The translations under genes and the position numbers were made by a program. From contig CAZEBU010000002.1 in assembly GCA_964510435.1 (NCBI GenBank), forward strand, positions 81,080-145,079: a DNA stretch of 64,000 nt, read 5' to 3'. Of the stretch, positions 4,368-11,432 are shown one piece after another; positions within the stretch are counted from its first letter, which is position 1, and every line of letters begins with the position of its first letter. The stretch comes from an uncultured Candidatus Saccharibacteria bacterium. GTDB lineage: Bacteria; Patescibacteriota; WWE3; UBA101185; UBA10185. The notes beneath the pieces were generated by a model. The model ran no database searches and was not told the origin of the DNA. It was given only the letters and a program-made list of their open reading frames with translations.

Positions 4368-5084
4368 ATGTACGGAAAACTGACCTTAAGGGATTTCGAT
4401 AAGGGAAATCAGCCTCGCGAAAGACTCGTAAATAAAGGCTCGGAAGCTCTTTCAGATGTTGAGCTGATGGCCATAATATTAAGATCCGGAGGAAAACACA
4501 AATCAGTTTTGGATATTTCCTACGAACTGCTAAAAAAACACGGCAACCTGGTTAATATATTCCAATGTGATCTGGAACAGCTGGCAAAGGAGAAGTACAT
4601 CGGGCGAGTGAAAGCCATAACTATAATAGCTGTCTTAGAAATATCTAAAAGAATACATTTGGCAAATAAGAAAGAGTATAGGTACATTCACAAACCCAAA
4701 GATGCCTTCCAAATAGTAAAGAAAGAACTTTTTGGTAAACGGCAAGAACATCTTTACTTAATTTCTCTTGATACTAGAAAGAGGTTTCTTTCTAAGGATC
4801 TGATCTGTATCGGATCTGTTAATGAAACGTTGATTCCTGTTAGGGAAATAATACAAAAAGCATTACTAAAGGACGCCGTCAATATTATCCTTGTGCATAA
4901 CCACCCCTCTAAGGATCCCAGTCCCAGTAAGGAGGATCTAGTAATTACCGAAAAAATTGCAAAAGCATGCCAACTAACCGGTTTGTCGCTTTTGGATCAC
5001 ATTATTACGGCTGACAATGAGTTTGCTAGTATAAAAAGTCTAGATTTATTTAATAGTGAAAAGTTAAGCAATGAAAGGAGGTGA
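4368..5084 (+). CDS. radC: RadC-like JAB-domain protein (UPF0758)
   Basis: 238 aa; N-terminal HhH-like region and a C-terminal JAB/MPN domain with HNHPSxxxxPSxxD (HNHPSKDPSPSKED). Confidence 0.85.
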   Translation: MYGKLTLRDFDKGNQPRERLVNKGSEALSDVELMAIILRSGGKHKSVLDISYELLKKHGNLVNIFQCDLEQLAKEKYIGRVKAITIIAVLEISKRIHLANKKEYRYIHKPKDAFQIVKKELFGKRQEHLYLISLDTRKRFLSKDLICIGSVNETLIPVREIIQKALLKDAVNIILVHNHPSKDPSPSKEDLVITEKIAKACQLTGLSLLDHIITADNEFASIKSLDLFNSEKLSNERR

Positions 5085-5088
5085 AGAA

Positions 5089-5220
5089 ATGAAAACAAAG
5101 TTAATTGTGATTTCCAGTTTGGCAATCTTAATACTAATTCTGGCCGGTGTGTCGTGGGCTGCATTCGGAGATAGAAGTAAGATCTTAGGGAGCAGTTTTT
5201 CTGTGGGGAGTGTTACCTAA
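5089..5220 (+). CDS. small predicted signal-peptide/membrane peptide (43 aa)
   Basis: ATG 4 nt after the radC stop, preceded by a ggaggtgaag RBS. Encodes MKTKLIVISSLAILILILAGVSWAAFGDRSKILGSSFSVGSVT. Hand-counted; overlaps the 3' end of the convergent ORF 5185-5598. Confidence 0.35.
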   Translation: MKTKLIVISSLAILILILAGVSWAAFGDRSKILGSSFSVGSVT

Positions 5221-5598
5221 TTCAATAGTAGATACCTTTATCTCCCCATCAATCAAAATATGGTCTTTATAGACAACAAGTTTCTTTACCCTAGACCTCA
5301 GTAGTTCTCTTTTTAGTAGACCAGATGCATTTCCCTCCCTTATTAGTTCATTGTACTTATCAATAAACTCCTCTCTGGCTTTTGTTAACGCGCTTTTCCT
5401 AACTTTGAAAATTTTAAATTCTCCCAATTCACCTTTTCTTTCTCCTAGCTGTGTGGATAGAGACTCACGTTCTTTACTAATTTCTTTCAGTTTAGTATCA
5501 AGGAGGTCTTCTCTAAATCTCTTTTTTACAAATTCCTCAACAGGGTAAGTACAATCAAATAGGAATAAGTGTGTCGAGATGAAGATTATAGGGTACAC
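5185..5598 (-). CDS. hypothetical coiled-coil protein
   Basis: 137-aa ORF, charged and helical (KLKEISKERESLSTQLGERKGELGEF...). I recognise no family. Confidence 0.4.
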   Translation of the reverse strand: MYPIIFISTHLFLFDCTYPVEEFVKKRFREDLLDTKLKEISKERESLSTQLGERKGELGEFKIFKVRKSALTKAREEFIDKYNELIREGNASGLLKRELLRSRVKKLVVYKDHILIDGEIKVSTIELGNTPHRKTAP

Positions 5599-5724
5599 GA
5601 AACTAGAAAATATCTCAAAAAAACAGCTTTAAACGTCGTTTAATAAATGATATACGACATGCTCACAAATAGTTCTTTTATAGATAAGCTGATTTTAGTG
5701 CTAGTGAGGTTATAATCGTGTTTT

Positions 5725-6441
5725 TTATGATACTGGCTTAATAACATCAGCATATGGTGCAACAAATTGAGTACCTTCATCGGAGACAATTGGTGTTTCT
5801 TCTTTAATCGTTTTCCTGTTTTCTTCAGCAAGTTCCTGCTTAGAAATATCATAGTAAATCTCTCCTCCACTTTTAAGGTAATCACTTTTAACTTTTTTAT
5901 CACTTATATCGATAATGATTTTAACCTTTGATAGAAGATCAAGAGATAAAATGTCTGCCTTTTTACACTTCTTTTGTAGATTACCAATGTGCACGCTGTA
6001 GACATCCAGTAGGCTTTCGTTTACTTCTTTATCTTTAAGCGAGGTCATTATTGCATTTACTTCTTCTTCAAGATATTGGGTATCAGAGTTTATAGTCTCT
6101 ATTAAAGAATACAAATTTGAGTAATCATTAATGATATCAATACTCAGAATTTTAAGGCTTAAACCTGAGCTTAAAAATAATTTATAAAACCTGAGCATAA
6201 GTCTAATTACATTATCTTCATGATCGAAGGAAGCTTCTAAAGTTCTTAGGTTTCTGGACATATTTACTCGTAGTGGTATTAGCTCGTGTTCAATTTGGAC
6301 AATTGTGTTCCTATGATCAATATACTTATCTCTACGTAATTCTCTTAAGCGTCTTTTAGATTCAAAGTGATCTGACCATATACCAGCAAATAAACCACCT
6401 GAAAAAGCTGATAATAATATTAATATGGCATCTTCCTTCAT
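5725..6441 (-). CDS. hypothetical membrane-anchored protein
   Basis: 238 aa; one N-terminal TM helix (AILILLSAFSGGLFAGIW) then a helical soluble domain. I recognise no family. Confidence 0.5.
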   Translation of the reverse strand: MKEDAILILLSAFSGGLFAGIWSDHFESKRRLRELRRDKYIDHRNTIVQIEHELIPLRVNMSRNLRTLEASFDHEDNVIRLMLRFYKLFLSSGLSLKILSIDIINDYSNLYSLIETINSDTQYLEEEVNAIMTSLKDKEVNESLLDVYSVHIGNLQKKCKKADILSLDLLSKVKIIIDISDKKVKSDYLKSGGEIYYDISKQELAEENRKTIKEETPIVSDEGTQFVAPYADVIKPVS

Positions 6442-6527
6442 ATATGTATATTATATGTCAGTTTAGTTGTAATATATCCTTACAGGCACCACGCTAGTTC
6501 ATTAATGCAACAATAGTGATTGTGGTA

Positions 6528-6556
6528 TTTACAAAATTATAAATGGTTGCTAAAAT
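6528..6556 (+). promoter_or_regulatory. sigma70-like promoter (-35 TTTACA, 17-nt spacer, extended -10 TGcTAAAAT)
   Basis: tttaca at 6528-6533 and tgctaaaat at 6548-6556. The predicted transcription start is near 6563, at the base of a structured region. Confidence 0.45.
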
Positions 6557-6562
6557 GTAAGC

Positions 6563-6655
6563 GTGCTAGTCGGGCGAAAGCCCTTCTTCAGCTAAGACAT
6601 GTCTAAGCCGAGAGACTAGCACACTAAGAGCGCCTTTTCTGGCGCTTCTTTTTAT
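6563..6655 (+). ncRNA. candidate small RNA with a three-way-junction fold, ending in an intrinsic terminator
   Basis: A 9-bp outer stem gtgctagtc/gactagcac (6563-6571 / 6614-6622) encloses hairpins gggcGAAAgccc and gctaagacatgtctaagc. A GC stem agagcgcc..ggcgct (6627-6647) plus a cUUUUUaUU tract follows. Sits directly downstream of the promoter above and is antisense to the last ~11 codons of ORF 6624-7061. Confidence 0.4.
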
Positions 6656-7061
6656 TAGATTTCATTTTATTCTTATTCATAACACTTCCAAGTTTGTAAA
6701 TATTGTTATAGATTCCTATTTTTTCAACGACTACTTTTATCTTCATTCTTGGGGATACTGGATGAATAAGCTCATAACTTATAAGGTCTTTCATCTTACC
6801 CTTATATTTTTTCTTTCTCCTTCTTATTTCTGAAATACTCTCACAATTTTCAATGACCTCTGGTGCGTATTGTAAACACCTAAGTCTCATATATTGATCG
6901 CTAATATTTCTAGGCATTCTATTTGAGTCGTAAATGAGATGATTAAATCCTTCTGATGTGAAATGAACGTCAGATTTTAGAACAGGACAATAAACCTTTT
7001 TAATTTTTTTGTAGTCTTTACGCTTTTCTTCAATTAATTTCTGTATATCTTTCGTGATCAA
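6624..7061 (-). CDS. hypothetical highly basic protein
   Basis: 145 aa; a cysteine-containing N-terminal half and an extremely K/R-rich C-terminus (KNKMKSNKKKRQKRRS). No family recognised. Confidence 0.45.
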   Translation of the reverse strand: MITKDIQKLIEEKRKDYKKIKKVYCPVLKSDVHFTSEGFNHLIYDSNRMPRNISDQYMRLRCLQYAPEVIENCESISEIRRRKKKYKGKMKDLISYELIHPVSPRMKIKVVVEKIGIYNNIYKLGSVMNKNKMKSNKKKRQKRRS

Positions 7062-7313: not shown

Positions 7314-7814
7314 TCACTCCGAGTTTATATTTTGCCAAAATATCTTTGGGTGGGGATATCCACCATAAATGGCGGCACTCTTATAAGCCTTTTTTACATT
7401 CTTTAAACCCTGCGTAGTCAAAACTTTGGTTAAACGCCCCCTGTACAGTTCTCTCGAAAGCTTTGGTTTAAACACAGGCATGCAAATCCAGTCCAGTATT
7501 TCCTCAATCAATGTATGCTCTTCATCCCTAAGATTTCCTGCTTTAATAGAGTAGCCTTTATTAGTCTTTTCAGTTTTATCACTATATATAGTCTTGTTAG
7601 AGTTCATCCTGTGGTACGTTCTATGGGGAATCTTTGATTCATTCTGTGGTGCAAATCCAATCACAGAGTCCACTTCATTTATCGTTACAACAGTTCCCTT
7701 TCTTGAAGGGCTCTGCTCTATTAACTGGTACACGTTTTCTAGTCTTTTAAGTGCCTTGCCTACAGTTCTGTGGTCACATCCAAACTCTCTGGCTATTTCT
7801 CTCCAACCACACAC
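7314..7814 (-). CDS. N-terminal HTH-domain protein (possible mobile-element or phage remnant)
   Basis: 166 aa with a GTG start. Residues 5-25 (REIAREFGCDHRTVGKALKRL) form a classic HTH like those of transposase OrfA or terminase small subunits. An in-frame stop lies 2 codons upstream, so the N-terminus is intact. Confidence 0.45.
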   Translation of the reverse strand: MCGWREIAREFGCDHRTVGKALKRLENVYQLIEQSPSRKGTVVTINEVDSVIGFAPQNESKIPHRTYHRMNSNKTIYSDKTEKTNKGYSIKAGNLRDEEHTLIEEILDWICMPVFKPKLSRELYRGRLTKVLTTQGLKNVKKAYKSAAIYGGYPHPKIFWQNINSE

Positions 7815-8000
7815 GCACTACCCACGTTTTAGGGTGTATACCTTACCCGCACTTTTAACAGCACCAGCTGAAATTCTTGTTCTAAGAAGTAAAAGGGTAT
7901 AAATATGCTTAGCTAGATAGTCTTCCCCAAATACACTATTTAAATTCGAGGGAATTGGGATTTTATAACTTGATTTAATTATGTCAATATTATTCATCTA

Positions 8001-8189
8001 TCAACTCTTCTCGGTCAAAATAATGTACCCCTTTCCCAAACATGCGTGGCACACTCTTCTATCAAAGGAAACAGTCCCAAACCCATTACAGACCAGGCAT
8101 TTATGCGGTTTTAAATCATTTCTATTTTTCATCGTTTTATCCATCTTTTTTATTTCGCTTTCAACAAAAAGGCTGACATATACACCCAA
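8001..8189 (-). CDS. small zinc-ribbon protein (CxxC...CxxC)
   Basis: 62 aa; KCLVCNGFGTVSFDRRVCHACLGKG carries two CxxC pairs. Could be a real small protein or spurious. Confidence 0.3.
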   Translation of the reverse strand: MGVYVSLFVESEIKKMDKTMKNRNDLKPHKCLVCNGFGTVSFDRRVCHACLGKGYIILTEKS

Positions 8190-8494: not shown

Positions 8495-9064
8495 CTACAC
8501 GCCAATTCCTAGTATGTAAACGGGAATATCTATATCTGAAACTCCTCTGGCATTTAAATCCCATACAAACTGTTCAAAATACGACACGCCAGTAGACATC
8601 TTTGCCGCCAACTCTTTCACAGGAACTATCTCAACTCCGGCATCAATATGCCCTAAGTTACTAAAAATGGTCATTTTAGCGCATACATTGTAAACCATAA
8701 AAGAATACTTACCGAATTGCACCTCAACACCTAGCTTATTTTTTATAAAGTCCATTTCCCTGTATGCATTATTAATTTTTATTGGAGAATACCCGTCTAT
8801 AAAGTATTCTGTCGGGTAATCGCATTTCTCTCTTATTCCATATTGCCACCCTTTAGATTTAAAGATTCTTTTAAACTCGTTATTCAATTTTCGTGGAGAG
8901 TACAGTGTCTTACCTGGCATAGTTTTTTCTTTGCTCTCCTTGCTAAAACTCTTTAAAGCATCGTTTAAACCGATTGCTTCTTCAATCTCTTTTAACTCTT
9001 GACTATAATTATTTTTTACATAATCCTCGCCATTAGCGAAGGAATACCTTCCAAATATTTTCAT
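8495..9064 (-). CDS. type II restriction endonuclease, BamHI/BglII/BstYI family
   Basis: 189 aa. IDGY...GVEVQFGKYSF...LGHIDAGVEIVPVKELAAK follows the BamHI pattern (D94 ... GMEFETGNIS ... LKHGEIDLAIILMPIKQLAYY). A Gln occupies the position of BamHI Glu113, as in BglII. Sits 2 nt downstream of a methyltransferase gene. Confidence 0.6.
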   Translation of the reverse strand: MKIFGRYSFANGEDYVKNNYSQELKEIEEAIGLNDALKSFSKESKEKTMPGKTLYSPRKLNNEFKRIFKSKGWQYGIREKCDYPTEYFIDGYSPIKINNAYREMDFIKNKLGVEVQFGKYSFMVYNVCAKMTIFSNLGHIDAGVEIVPVKELAAKMSTGVSYFEQFVWDLNARGVSDIDIPVYILGIGV

Positions 9065-9066
9065 CT

Positions 9067-10005
9067 TTATTTAATCCAACTTATTGGTACCTTCGATACC
9101 TTTTCTTTTCCTGTTGGTTTGTATACTGGTTTACCTAGAGGCCTTATTCTTAATTTTCCAGCTCTTAATTTAGCAATTCTCTTCTCGGCTAAGCTAACAT
9201 ATTTTGCTTCCATTTCCATACCTAATGCATCCCTATTATGCATAATAGCACCAATAACCGTGGAACCCACACCCATAAACGGGTCGTAAACCAAATCTCC
9301 TTCGTTTGTTAATGCTAGAACACATCTCTGAACCAATTCCACGGGAAATTGACAGGGATGACCAGTCTTTTCAGGATGATTGCTTTTTACATTAGGTATT
9401 TCCCAAATTTCCTTCTCCCAATCCCCACAAATTATCTCCCAAAAATCTGAAGGATTCTTTCCTCTTGGATTACCAGAAGGTTTACCTAAATTTTTACCTT
9501 TATAGGAAAGCTTTCCTGGGTACTTTGCAGGAACTCTTACATTATCAAGGTTGAACACATACTCTTTATTCTTATCATTTTTTGTGAACCATAATATTGT
9601 CTCGTACCTACCCGAAAACCTTTTACTAGCGTGGAGTCCGTGACCAAAATGCCAGATTATTCTATTCCTTAGATGAAATCCAACGTCTTTAAAAATATTA
9701 TAAAAATAAATATCTAAGGGAAAAACTTCGCCTTTTTTGATATAGTTTCCAACCTCCCATGCTAAACTGCCGCCGTCTCTTATTTTGGAGTAAATTGCTC
9801 GAGCAAAATCTTTATAAGGATGAAGGTACTTTTCAAAATCTTTTCTTTTCTCATATTCCTTTCCAATATTGTATGGTGGAGAGGTTATAAGTAATTGTAT
9901 GCTATCATCTTCCAATTTTTTTACATGTTTGAATGTATCAACTTGGAGAATATCGTATTTACCAAATTTTTTTTGCATGTTTAATCCCAACTTTGACTGT
10001 GCCAT
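9067..10005 (-). CDS. DNA methyltransferase, beta-class (SPPY motif IV before FxGxG motif I), probable N4-cytosine or N6-adenine type II MTase
   Basis: 312 aa; LLITSPPYNIGKEY (motif IV) followed later by DPFMGVGST (motif I). This order matches the N4C/N6A beta group that includes M.BamHI and M.PvuII. Confidence 0.85.
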   Translation of the reverse strand: MAQSKLGLNMQKKFGKYDILQVDTFKHVKKLEDDSIQLLITSPPYNIGKEYEKRKDFEKYLHPYKDFARAIYSKIRDGGSLAWEVGNYIKKGEVFPLDIYFYNIFKDVGFHLRNRIIWHFGHGLHASKRFSGRYETILWFTKNDKNKEYVFNLDNVRVPAKYPGKLSYKGKNLGKPSGNPRGKNPSDFWEIICGDWEKEIWEIPNVKSNHPEKTGHPCQFPVELVQRCVLALTNEGDLVYDPFMGVGSTVIGAIMHNRDALGMEMEAKYVSLAEKRIAKLRAGKLRIRPLGKPVYKPTGKEKVSKVPISWIK

Positions 10006-10151: not shown

Positions 10152-11432
10152 CTAAAACGCATCCAATTCAGCAAAGGACGGATTATTGACAATTTCCTCT
10201 ACAGCATCGCTATCAAATTTTTCGTTCTGCCAAAAACCCCGAAGTTCCAAATCTTTTGTTGCAAGGGGGTATATCCATGCAGTAAACACTTTATCTGCTT
10301 TATCAATAAATATTATCCTTACCTCCACACCTCCAGCAAGAGAACCACTAAGTGGAAACGTGACAAATTTGCTTCTATAATAACTATTGTCAAAATTCTT
10401 CAAACCAGTAATTTCGGTTTCTAAACCAACTATAGCTAGATGTGACACGCCGTCATTACCCCCGTCAAGATAATTATCTAAGGCTTCTCTCAAGAAAGTC
10501 ACATACTCCAAGTCACTAATATTCTTTCTCCATTCTAAGTATTCTTCGTAATCGCCTATAGCTGGTTGTGGAAAGGTATCACCAGCATTATAAATATCTT
10601 CAATCTCTATTTTTGGTTGCTGTGCAGTTAACCCATTAGCTTCGCTAGGCTCAGTGTGCTCTTTAGCCCCGTTAGAATCATAAAACTTAAGGTCAGTCGG
10701 AAGATTGAATTTATTAGGCTCATAGGTAGTAATTTCTAGCAATATTGATATGCCTGTGACTAAAGTGACAAGTACTAAAGATACTTCTAAAAATCTTAGA
10801 ATTTTTCTTCTTCCCCAGAAATTATTAAAAAACTTGAATGCTAATATAAACAAAGTAAACGATGCCAGTAATAACGGTAATATTTCTTCAGGAATACTTG
10901 GTTTGGGTGAGTACCCTATAAAAGCACCTATAATTGCGTATAAAATCAGTAAAAAGAGAAGTAAAACTAACCAAAATAATACCTTGACTATTTCGTCGGT
11001 TTTCCTATAGGAGAAAGCCAGACGCGTATATATTTTCTGTATTAATTCCTTAGTATATCTAAAACCATACAACTTAATTAATAATATTGTTCCTATTAAA
11101 AATGTTATCATTCTCCAAATATTATCTGAGAACCAAGCGCTATCTGAGAATTTAAACTCTGCAATCGGATTTATAACCACAATTAACAATATATAAACTC
11201 TTACCCAAGTCATGTTTTTACTCTGATATTCTTTATATGCAAGGTAGATTAGTGATAAGAAAATAATTATCTTGAAGTTATAGAATGTATTACTATTTGA
11301 AAGGTAACTAGGCTGTGTGGCCAACAACCAAATAAATAAAAATAACAAAACTAGTGGTAAACTTTTCAGTATAACCGAGTCAGACTTTATCATTGATAGT
11401 ATTTTCTTATTGTAAGACTCTTTTAGTTCCAT
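10152..11432 (-). CDS. hypothetical polytopic membrane protein with C-terminal soluble domain
   Basis: 426 aa; about 7 hydrophobic helices in the first ~240 aa, then an acidic soluble domain. No family recognised. Confidence 0.55.
   Translation of the reverse strand: MELKESYNKKILSMIKSDSVILKSLPLVLLFLFIWLLATQPSYLSNSNTFYNFKIIIFLSLIYLAYKEYQSKNMTWVRVYILLIVVINPIAEFKFSDSAWFSDNIWRMITFLIGTILLIKLYGFRYTKELIQKIYTRLAFSYRKTDEIVKVLFWLVLLLFLLILYAIIGAFIGYSPKPSIPEEILPLLLASFTLFILAFKFFNNFWGRRKILRFLEVSLVLVTLVTGISILLEITTYEPNKFNLPTDLKFYDSNGAKEHTEPSEANGLTAQQPKIEIEDIYNAGDTFPQPAIGDYEEYLEWRKNISDLEYVTFLREALDNYLDGGNDGVSHLAIVGLETEITGLKNFDNSYYRSKFVTFPLSGSLAGGVEVRIIFIDKADKVFTAWIYPLATKDLELRGFWQNEKFDSDAVEEIVNNPSFAELDAF

Follow-up and report, generated by a model that had tools for sequence, protein, structure and literature searches.

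The 64,000-nucleotide (nt) stretch of an uncultured Candidatus Saccharibacteria genome analyzed here (contig CAZEBU010000002.1; "the window" below means this whole stretch) carries, at positions 5185-7061, three consecutive minus-strand open reading frames (ORF1, ORF2, and ORF3), which a preliminary description had suggested might form a new abortive-infection or defense system beside a restriction-modification pair. The segment is probably a mosaic of three independent accessory units, lying in a variable island low in guanine plus cytosine (GC), rather than a three-gene system. The units proposed are ORF3 together with a convergent small RNA (unit A), ORF2 as a single-gene cassette (unit B), and ORF1 (unit C). 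Two of these parts are of moderate interest, one as an RNA-plus-protein cassette and the other as a lineage-specific candidate defense or exclusion family. The coordinates, lengths, and strand first given for the three genes agree with the ORF list:

5185-5598, minus strand: ORF1, 137 amino acids (aa), GTG start
5725-6441, minus strand: ORF2, 238 aa, ATG start
6624-7061, minus strand: ORF3, 145 aa, TTG start

For a joint system, the three genes would be expected to travel together, and the preliminary description had itself proposed examining their co-occurrence, holding that genes never found together outside this genome would tell against its idea. Loci encoding relatives of ORF2 (36, of which 23 are non-redundant) and of the ORF3 family (six) were collected, and other trio members were sought in them by tblastn, all-against-all BLASTP clustering, and permissive phmmer. 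A second member was present at none of the 36 ORF2-relative loci (0 of the 23 non-redundant ones) and at none of the six ORF3-family loci, where the ORF3 relatives stand alone in unrelated contexts. In these loci the trio is thus never together outside this genome, and a three-gene system is not supported. It is true that the genes are co-oriented, compact, and less than 2 kilobases (kb) from a type II restriction-modification pair, and that defense genes are often found near ORF2 relatives. However, besides the absence of co-occurrence across 36 + 6 related loci, ORF1 has no relatives among about 5.8 billion proteins, and ORF3 and ORF2 are parted by a convergent RNA gene, predicted from sequence to have its own promoter and terminator, so that the two would not form one operon. 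Joint action of the three as an abortive-infection or defense system linked to the adjoining restriction-modification genes therefore seems very improbable. The companion statement that none of the three belongs to a recognizable family holds for ORF1, but not for ORF2, which has 96 homologous clusters, or for ORF3, with five relatives and a sub-threshold match to the LPD3 domain.

A predicted structured RNA behind ORF3

At all six loci of the ORF3 family, a structured element lies on the 3' side of the gene and convergent to it. In the window, it is predicted to be an RNA gene of about 95 nt (approximately 6560-6657, plus strand) that overlaps the last ~11 codons of ORF3, with the following parts:

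6528-6556, plus strand: promoter (TTTACA, 17-nt spacer, TG-TAAAAT; 10 of 12 positions as in the consensus, and an extended TG)
6561-6624, plus strand: Y-shaped three-way-junction core, ending at the ORF3 stop codon
6628-6657, plus strand: intrinsic terminator (stem-loop 6628-6647, U-run 6648-6657)

The core folds into an outer stem around two hairpins, one GGGC-GAAA-GCCC and the other bulged, with a separate GC-rich hairpin adjoining; on the plus strand, the terminator reads GAGCGCC-TTTTCT-GGCGCTT and then CTTTTTATTA. The predicted structure is stable, with a minimum free energy of -48 kcal/mol and a z-score of -5.5.

The element is better conserved than the gene it follows. Local identity behind ORF3 relatives is 88-96% (BLAST), versus ~45-55% for the proteins, and over the whole core nucleotide identity is 73-86%, versus 60-65% for the coding DNA. 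In the consensus fold, ~91% of cells are paired, compared with 28-50% when the partners are slid, and compensatory changes affect 9-10 pairs (two of them in helix 4, the terminator), compared with 0-5 in the slid controls and ~4 in shuffles. A covariance model trained on five copies, leaving out the truncated copy at locus L047, finds the latter at 52.5 bits; in all, each of the six ORF3-family loci gives a copy, and the rest of the 362 kb gives none. What is conserved, and what passes from one genome to another, is ORF3 paired with its RNA. No Rfam family reaches threshold, the best being BSnc120 at 22.6 bits (threshold 114), sraL at 26.7 (39), and Atu_C8 at 26.9 (50). The sequence signals make the existence of an antisense RNA gene here quite likely; as a structured antisense RNA it is previously undescribed, with no Rfam family covering it, and it adds a covariation-supported motif outside that collection.

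The strand of the RNA is the main uncertainty. Two points weigh against an antisense transcript: the covariation statistics are thin, at six RNA sequences, and the fold pairs equally on both strands (91.2% vs. 90.5%), so that the strand can be called from the promoter and terminator signals only. Another possibility is that the element is a 3' untranslated region (UTR) structure or terminator on the sense strand, or else a hairpin acting at the DNA level in recombination or transposition and mobilizing the cassette. The sense-strand fold is equally good, and in the window slightly more stable (-48.2 vs. -43.0 kcal/mol); the cassette also occurs in unrelated contexts, with IS1-like and Y1 transposase genes nearby in two loci. 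Read in the sense direction, however, the hairpins lack U-runs, whereas in the antisense direction a hairpin followed by T5-6 is found at six of six loci, and only in this direction does a U-run follow the GC-rich hairpin. At each of the five complete loci, -35 and -10 hexamers stand at a constant distance from the first stem, separated by spacers that are unrelated in sequence; at the same aligned position, the hexamers are TTGACT/TATAAT in L010, TTGACA/TATTCT in L011, TTGACA/AATAAT in L012, and TTGACC/TATAGT in L048. No conserved partner site is present in the 5' flank of ORF3, and the weak Rfam near-misses are models of small RNAs with terminators, matched on the antisense strand. Taken together, these observations leave a sense-strand or DNA-level element unlikely.

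Assuming that the RNA is antisense, it would be transcribed toward ORF3 from its own sigma-70-type promoter and end inside the last ORF3 codons. It could then base-pair with the ORF3 mRNA at its 3' end and hold ORF3 expression low; were this so, ORF3 would be expected to do harm in excess. ORF3 and the RNA are proposed to be a self-contained mobile cassette, for which a toxin-antitoxin-like function is, by analogy, possible though less likely than not.

The closest analogies are with RNAs acting at the 3' ends of their targets. In phage lambda, OOP RNA targets cII; toxin mRNAs are likewise targeted by the type I antitoxin RNAs that overlap their 3' ends, as in the bsrG/SR4 and txpA/RatA pairs of B. 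subtilis and the par RNAI/RNAII pair of E. faecalis. Like these, the predicted ORF3 RNA is short, structured, and convergent, and overlaps the 3' end of a gene; gene and RNA also travel as a compact cassette in variable contexts. The features expected of a type I or other cis-antisense arrangement (an RNA gene, its own promoter and terminator, and overlap) are thus all found, in silico only. In contrast to OOP and the type I RNAs, the ORF3 RNA overlaps the coding region by only ~34 nt, the greater part of it falling in the 3' UTR, and it has no Rfam match. The protein also departs from the usual type I toxins, which are hydrophobic peptides of less than 60 aa: ORF3 is a basic, soluble protein of 145 aa and not a small hydrophobic membrane peptide (pI, the isoelectric point, 10.1). 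A toxin of another kind is found in SymE/SymR, a type I pair in which the toxin is soluble and nuclease-like. ORF3 resembles SymE in exceeding 100 aa, in not being a membrane peptide, and in having a putative cis-antisense RNA. It differs in that SymR overlaps the 5' end of symE while the ORF3 RNA is at the 3' end, and in its predicted fold, a helix/hairpin part and a four-stranded sheet as opposed to the AbrB-like SymE. A literature search found nothing on type I toxin-antitoxin systems in Patescibacteria.

The ORF3 protein itself was described at the outset as very basic and cysteine-containing, which its composition bears out (pI 10.1, 38 lysines plus arginines, three cysteines, maximum Kyte-Doolittle value 0.71). 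With five relatives, its family numbers six. The members share the motif V(H/Y)FTSEGFNHLxY, and the protein appears to be of the alpha/beta type, the predicted model having an N-terminal part of helix/hairpin type and, after it, a sheet of four strands. Residues 14-87 align to positions 11-78 of LPD3 (large polyvalent protein-associated domain 3, PF18798) with 24.9 bits and E = 2.4e-5, below the gathering cut-off of 27; five of the six family members match LPD3 at E <= 0.1. We know of no antisense RNA reported for LPD3, and ORF3 differs from reported LPD3 proteins in standing solo in a Patescibacteria chromosome, in its sub-threshold score, and in its predicted antisense RNA. LPDs have no assigned function and occur in polyvalent proteins of phages and conjugative elements, and also as solo proteins (Iyer et al. 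2017, PMC5512222). By tying an LPD3-like domain to a putative dedicated, structured antisense RNA, the cassette may offer a handle on the function of the domain, through toxicity and its control by RNA. Neither a relative of ORF3, nor the RNA, nor a relative of the neighboring helix-turn-helix (HTH) gene was found in IMG/VR viral contigs.

The basic C-terminal tail of ORF3 had been taken to suggest nucleic-acid binding. That argument is weakened, because the tail, KKKRQKRRS, is read from the strand complementary to the predicted antisense terminator: the A-run gives lysine codons and the GC-rich stem gives arginine codons. In L010, a stop codon in the hairpin loop leaves the ORF3 relative with a shorter tail. 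The remainder of the protein is still basic (pI 9.7). For annotation more generally, a caution follows: a terminator on one strand can, as a side effect, give a striking basic tail to a protein encoded on the other.

ORF2, its family, and its genomic contexts

ORF2 belongs to an unnamed family restricted to Microgenomates/Patescibacteria, with at least 96 homologous clusters at 36-54% identity, none of them containing a Pfam domain. Most clusters are singletons found on one to three contigs, and the few that are named come from Daviesbacteria, Microgenomates, Shapirobacteria, or the "Patescibacteria group." The preliminary description of the protein as helical and anchored by a single transmembrane helix is upheld by one strongly hydrophobic N-terminal segment and by a helical AlphaFold2 model. 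The segment is encoded as follows:

6373-6429, minus strand: codons of the ORF2 transmembrane helix (residues 5-23, AILILLSAFSGGLFAGIWS, Kyte-Doolittle 1.85)

Small residues form a packing motif within this helix (G15 G16 xx A19 G20), and the helix leads into a stretch rich in lysine and arginine; F13, G15, G16, F18, and A19 are conserved in at least 90% of family sequences. The family alignment shows the transmembrane segment as SAFFGGLFAG, then the lysine/arginine-rich stretch, then a near-invariant helix, DKYxEHRNTIVQIEHELIPxRVNxSRN, with a further conserved motif, FVAPY, at the C-terminus. Invariant in this alignment are R36, N45, Q49, E51, E53, R58, R63, R84, N105, Y107, D120, Y148, and F226. 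The AlphaFold2 model (mean predicted local distance difference test score 89.8) begins with a very long helix and has two others that are also long, and a small sheet of two strands folds the C-terminus back; the helical bundle carries a conserved polar surface. From the positive-inside rule, we infer an N-out/C-in topology with a cytoplasmic bundle.

Where do relatives of ORF2 occur? In 11 of the 23 non-redundant contexts, as a raw count, the relative lies among or beside defense or mobile-element genes. These include type I, II, and III restriction-modification genes, serine integrases, a terminase, and genes for Fic, HEPN, TIR-like, and AlbA_2 proteins, with Fic, HEPN, and TIR-like proteins among the neighbors of ORF2 relatives. 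At L006, the relative is operonic within a type I restriction-modification system, in the order HsdS, HsdR, a 149-aa protein, the ORF2 relative, and a Cas4-like nuclease. At L023, it closes a type III series of methyltransferase, ResIII, and AlbA_2 (Schlafen/AlbA_2) genes, with ends overlapping. A large serine recombinase adjoins the relative in five loci, among them an IMG/VR viral contig with the ORF2 relative at its end beside integrase and terminase genes. The upstream neighbor is co-oriented and close in ~60% of loci and belongs to at least nine unrelated families. What is left of the suspicion of a defense role in the preliminary description concerns ORF2 taken alone, whose relatives are near or in restriction-modification operons, by integrases, and in a predicted prophage.

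Context and anatomy lead us to infer that ORF2 is a stand-alone, membrane-anchored accessory protein of mobile and defense islands. Its specific role is less certain: phage exclusion or abortive infection, through an effector that would act at the membrane, is the leading candidate function, though one that is possible rather than probable. Alternatively, ORF2 could serve Microgenomates as a normal housekeeping protein of the membrane, perhaps in the envelope or in division, with only incidental proximity to defense and mobile genes. The family is under strong purifying selection, with 16 invariant residues, and several relatives do have genes of housekeeping or envelope type around them (Wzy_C, LysM, and ParB near the one at L001; ychF near that at L017). 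However, a housekeeping gene would fit poorly with a position that is not fixed (the nine or more different upstream neighbors), with operonic insertions into both type I and type III restriction-modification operons, with the copy beside an integrase on a viral contig, with the truncated copy at L039, and with the preponderance of singleton clusters on one to three contigs. This explanation is accordingly thought quite improbable, and the accessory, island-borne role is preferred.

A known protein of comparable placement is the lactococcal Sie2009, a prophage-encoded, membrane-anchored superinfection-exclusion protein whose gene lies next to the integrase. ORF2 relatives are like Sie2009-type proteins in being single genes with an N-terminal anchor, at the edge of integrase-bearing elements and of a predicted prophage. 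They are unlike them in having no sequence or fold similarity and in that the bulk of the protein is predicted to be cytoplasmic.

More specific assignments of ORF2 did not hold. In PADLOC, the window protein matches three PDC-M08B models (best E = 7.8e-6), but it is the only one of 38 family members to do so, and no PDC-M08A match was found in the window or among the neighbors of the relatives; the match is regarded as spurious because it is limited to the window protein. No paper mentioning the PDC-M08 system was found. A HEPN nuclease was also considered for ORF2 and rejected, the spacing being wrong for the Rx4-6H motif expected in a four-helix bundle. Sequence-profile searches of the PDB with ORF2 and ORF3 gave nothing significant, and ORF2, ORF3, and the RNA had no match among GenBank phages and PLSDB plasmids.

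Patescibacteria (the candidate phyla radiation) are largely without CRISPR-Cas and are thought to depend on restriction-modification and other mechanisms (PMC4742961). In such a CRISPR-poor group, a lineage-restricted family found recurrently in restriction-modification operons and by integrases is a concrete candidate for further work. The most far-reaching interpretation would be that ORF3 and its Y-shaped RNA form a new mobile, RNA-controlled toxin or defense cassette (an LPD3-type protein, possibly an RNase-like effector, that the RNA would restrain) and that the ORF2 family is a new stand-alone antiphage membrane protein of Patescibacteria; as a whole, we consider this rather unlikely.

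Several other features of ORF2 loci were recorded. At L006 (1-7568), the 149-aa gene encodes a membrane protein, the Cas4-like nuclease is of the PD-(D/E)XK type, all are co-oriented behind HsdR, and a reverse-transcriptase gene lies upstream of HsdS. Stand-alone GIY-YIG nuclease genes (82-112 aa) are found beside ORF2 relatives in L024, L025, L036, and L040, with two copies in L025 and L040. In L001 (5351-6007), L026/L027/L028, L032, and L038, a gene for a protein of 218-232 aa recurs upstream of the ORF2 relative, with a 7-nt overlap between the two; the protein has a TIIDGTHRSS motif, reminiscent of ParB/sulfiredoxin-type nucleases, and no Pfam or PADLOC match. In the window, a TATAAT box upstream of ORF2 (6442-6466 region) ends ~11 nt from the ATG, a sign that the mRNA may be leaderless or nearly so.

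ORF1 and the surrounding island

ORF1 is a lineage-specific ORFan with gene-like codon usage. It has a weakly hydrophobic N-terminus, a helical middle rich in lysine and glutamate, and short C-terminal strands. Its initial characterization as a coiled-coil protein seems apt: it is rich in lysine, glutamate, and arginine and helical, and such weak matches as it has all point to coiled-coil families. No relatives were found among 5.8 billion clustered proteins, and exhaustive phmmer against 1.84 billion representatives gave nothing except a repetitive protein of 1955 aa. There is no methionine after the GTG start, where ~2.3 would be expected; the chance of finding none is ~0.1, so this is not unusual.

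ORF1 may be the remnant of a larger gene. One version of this idea, compatible with the mosaic reading, is that it is the decayed 3' end of a large serine recombinase, and that the region from 5.1 to 11.5 kb is a degraded integrated element. Residues 21-121 align to the coiled-coil and post-coiled-coil part of serine integrases in two independent weak matches, one to phrog_95 (E = 0.0065) and one to a local hidden Markov model built from five integrases (3.9 bits, E ~1e-3 for one target); serine integrases frequently adjoin ORF2 relatives, GC is low throughout the region, and its HTH gene is broken. Against this, BLASTP of ORF1 with an integrase is not significant, phmmer over the 1.84 billion proteins found no integrase, the frames inspected upstream contain no further integrase fragments, no direct repeats flank the region, and codon usage is fully gene-like (0.27). 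A recombinase origin is thus not a likely one. As a large serine recombinase in its own right, ORF1 was rejected, having no Pfam match and lacking the resolvase catalytic, recombinase, and zinc-ribbon domains.

The placement of the trio between RadC and an HTH protein with a restriction-modification pair, as originally described, is borne out by Pfam and PADLOC matches. On the RadC side lie the ribosomal protein operon, an XRE gene, and RadC itself; on the other side are the HTH gene, a small zinc-ribbon ORF, a BglII-like endonuclease, and an N4/N6 methyltransferase. The main neighbors are:

4368-5084: RadC, one flank of the trio
7314-7997, minus strand: split HTH gene, upstream neighbor of ORF3
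8495-10005, minus strand: type II restriction-modification pair
8495-9064, minus strand: BglII-like endonuclease (PF09195, 5e-21; PADLOC REase_II, 5e-34)
9067-10005, minus strand: N4/N6 DNA methyltransferase (PF01555, 1e-49; PADLOC MTase_II, 6e-68)

The GC fraction is 0.32-0.35 at 5-12 kb, compared with ~0.39 in the flanks. A codon-usage score trained on 30 long genes in the window, for which real genes give 0.26 +/- 0.04 and spurious overlapping ORFs 0.08 +/- 0.08, was 0.27 for ORF1, 0.22 for ORF2, and 0.07 for ORF3, making the frames gene-like or intermediate. Metagenome assemblies of the same population break repeatedly within the region, as would fit a variable island.

Besides the points raised above by the RNA, some observations weigh against a mosaic of mobile units. 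About half of the ORF2 contexts are ordinary (for example L001, L015, L017, and L021), and the structure search with ORF2 matched only generic helical bundles. A search of the island borders gave no convincing flanking direct repeats and no tRNA, and an exact-protein look-up with RpsI returned only fragments of the same population, without an island-free relative.

The HTH gene is broken by an in-frame TAG at 7818-7820 into ORFs of 59 and 166 aa in one reading frame. The TAG recurs in an independent assembly (L046); between the independent assembly and the window there is 1 nt difference in 3341, and therefore no selection signal. Since TAG is a normal stop in the window genome, ending 8 of 40 long ORFs, the split gene is probably a pseudogene. 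Joining the two ORFs across the TAG improved no family match.

A few further features of the window may be mentioned. Of the 21 start codons inspected, hardly any has a Shine-Dalgarno-like motif in front of it. A 62-aa ORF with a CxxC...CxxC zinc ribbon (8001-8189, minus strand) adjoins the split HTH gene on its upstream side; it weakly matches anti-TRAP/DnaJ zinc fingers as well as families of phage Q-like antiterminators. Directly behind the methyltransferase, in the low-GC stretch, a multi-pass membrane protein of 426 aa (10152-11432, minus strand) matches DUF6804 with E = 1.9e-7.

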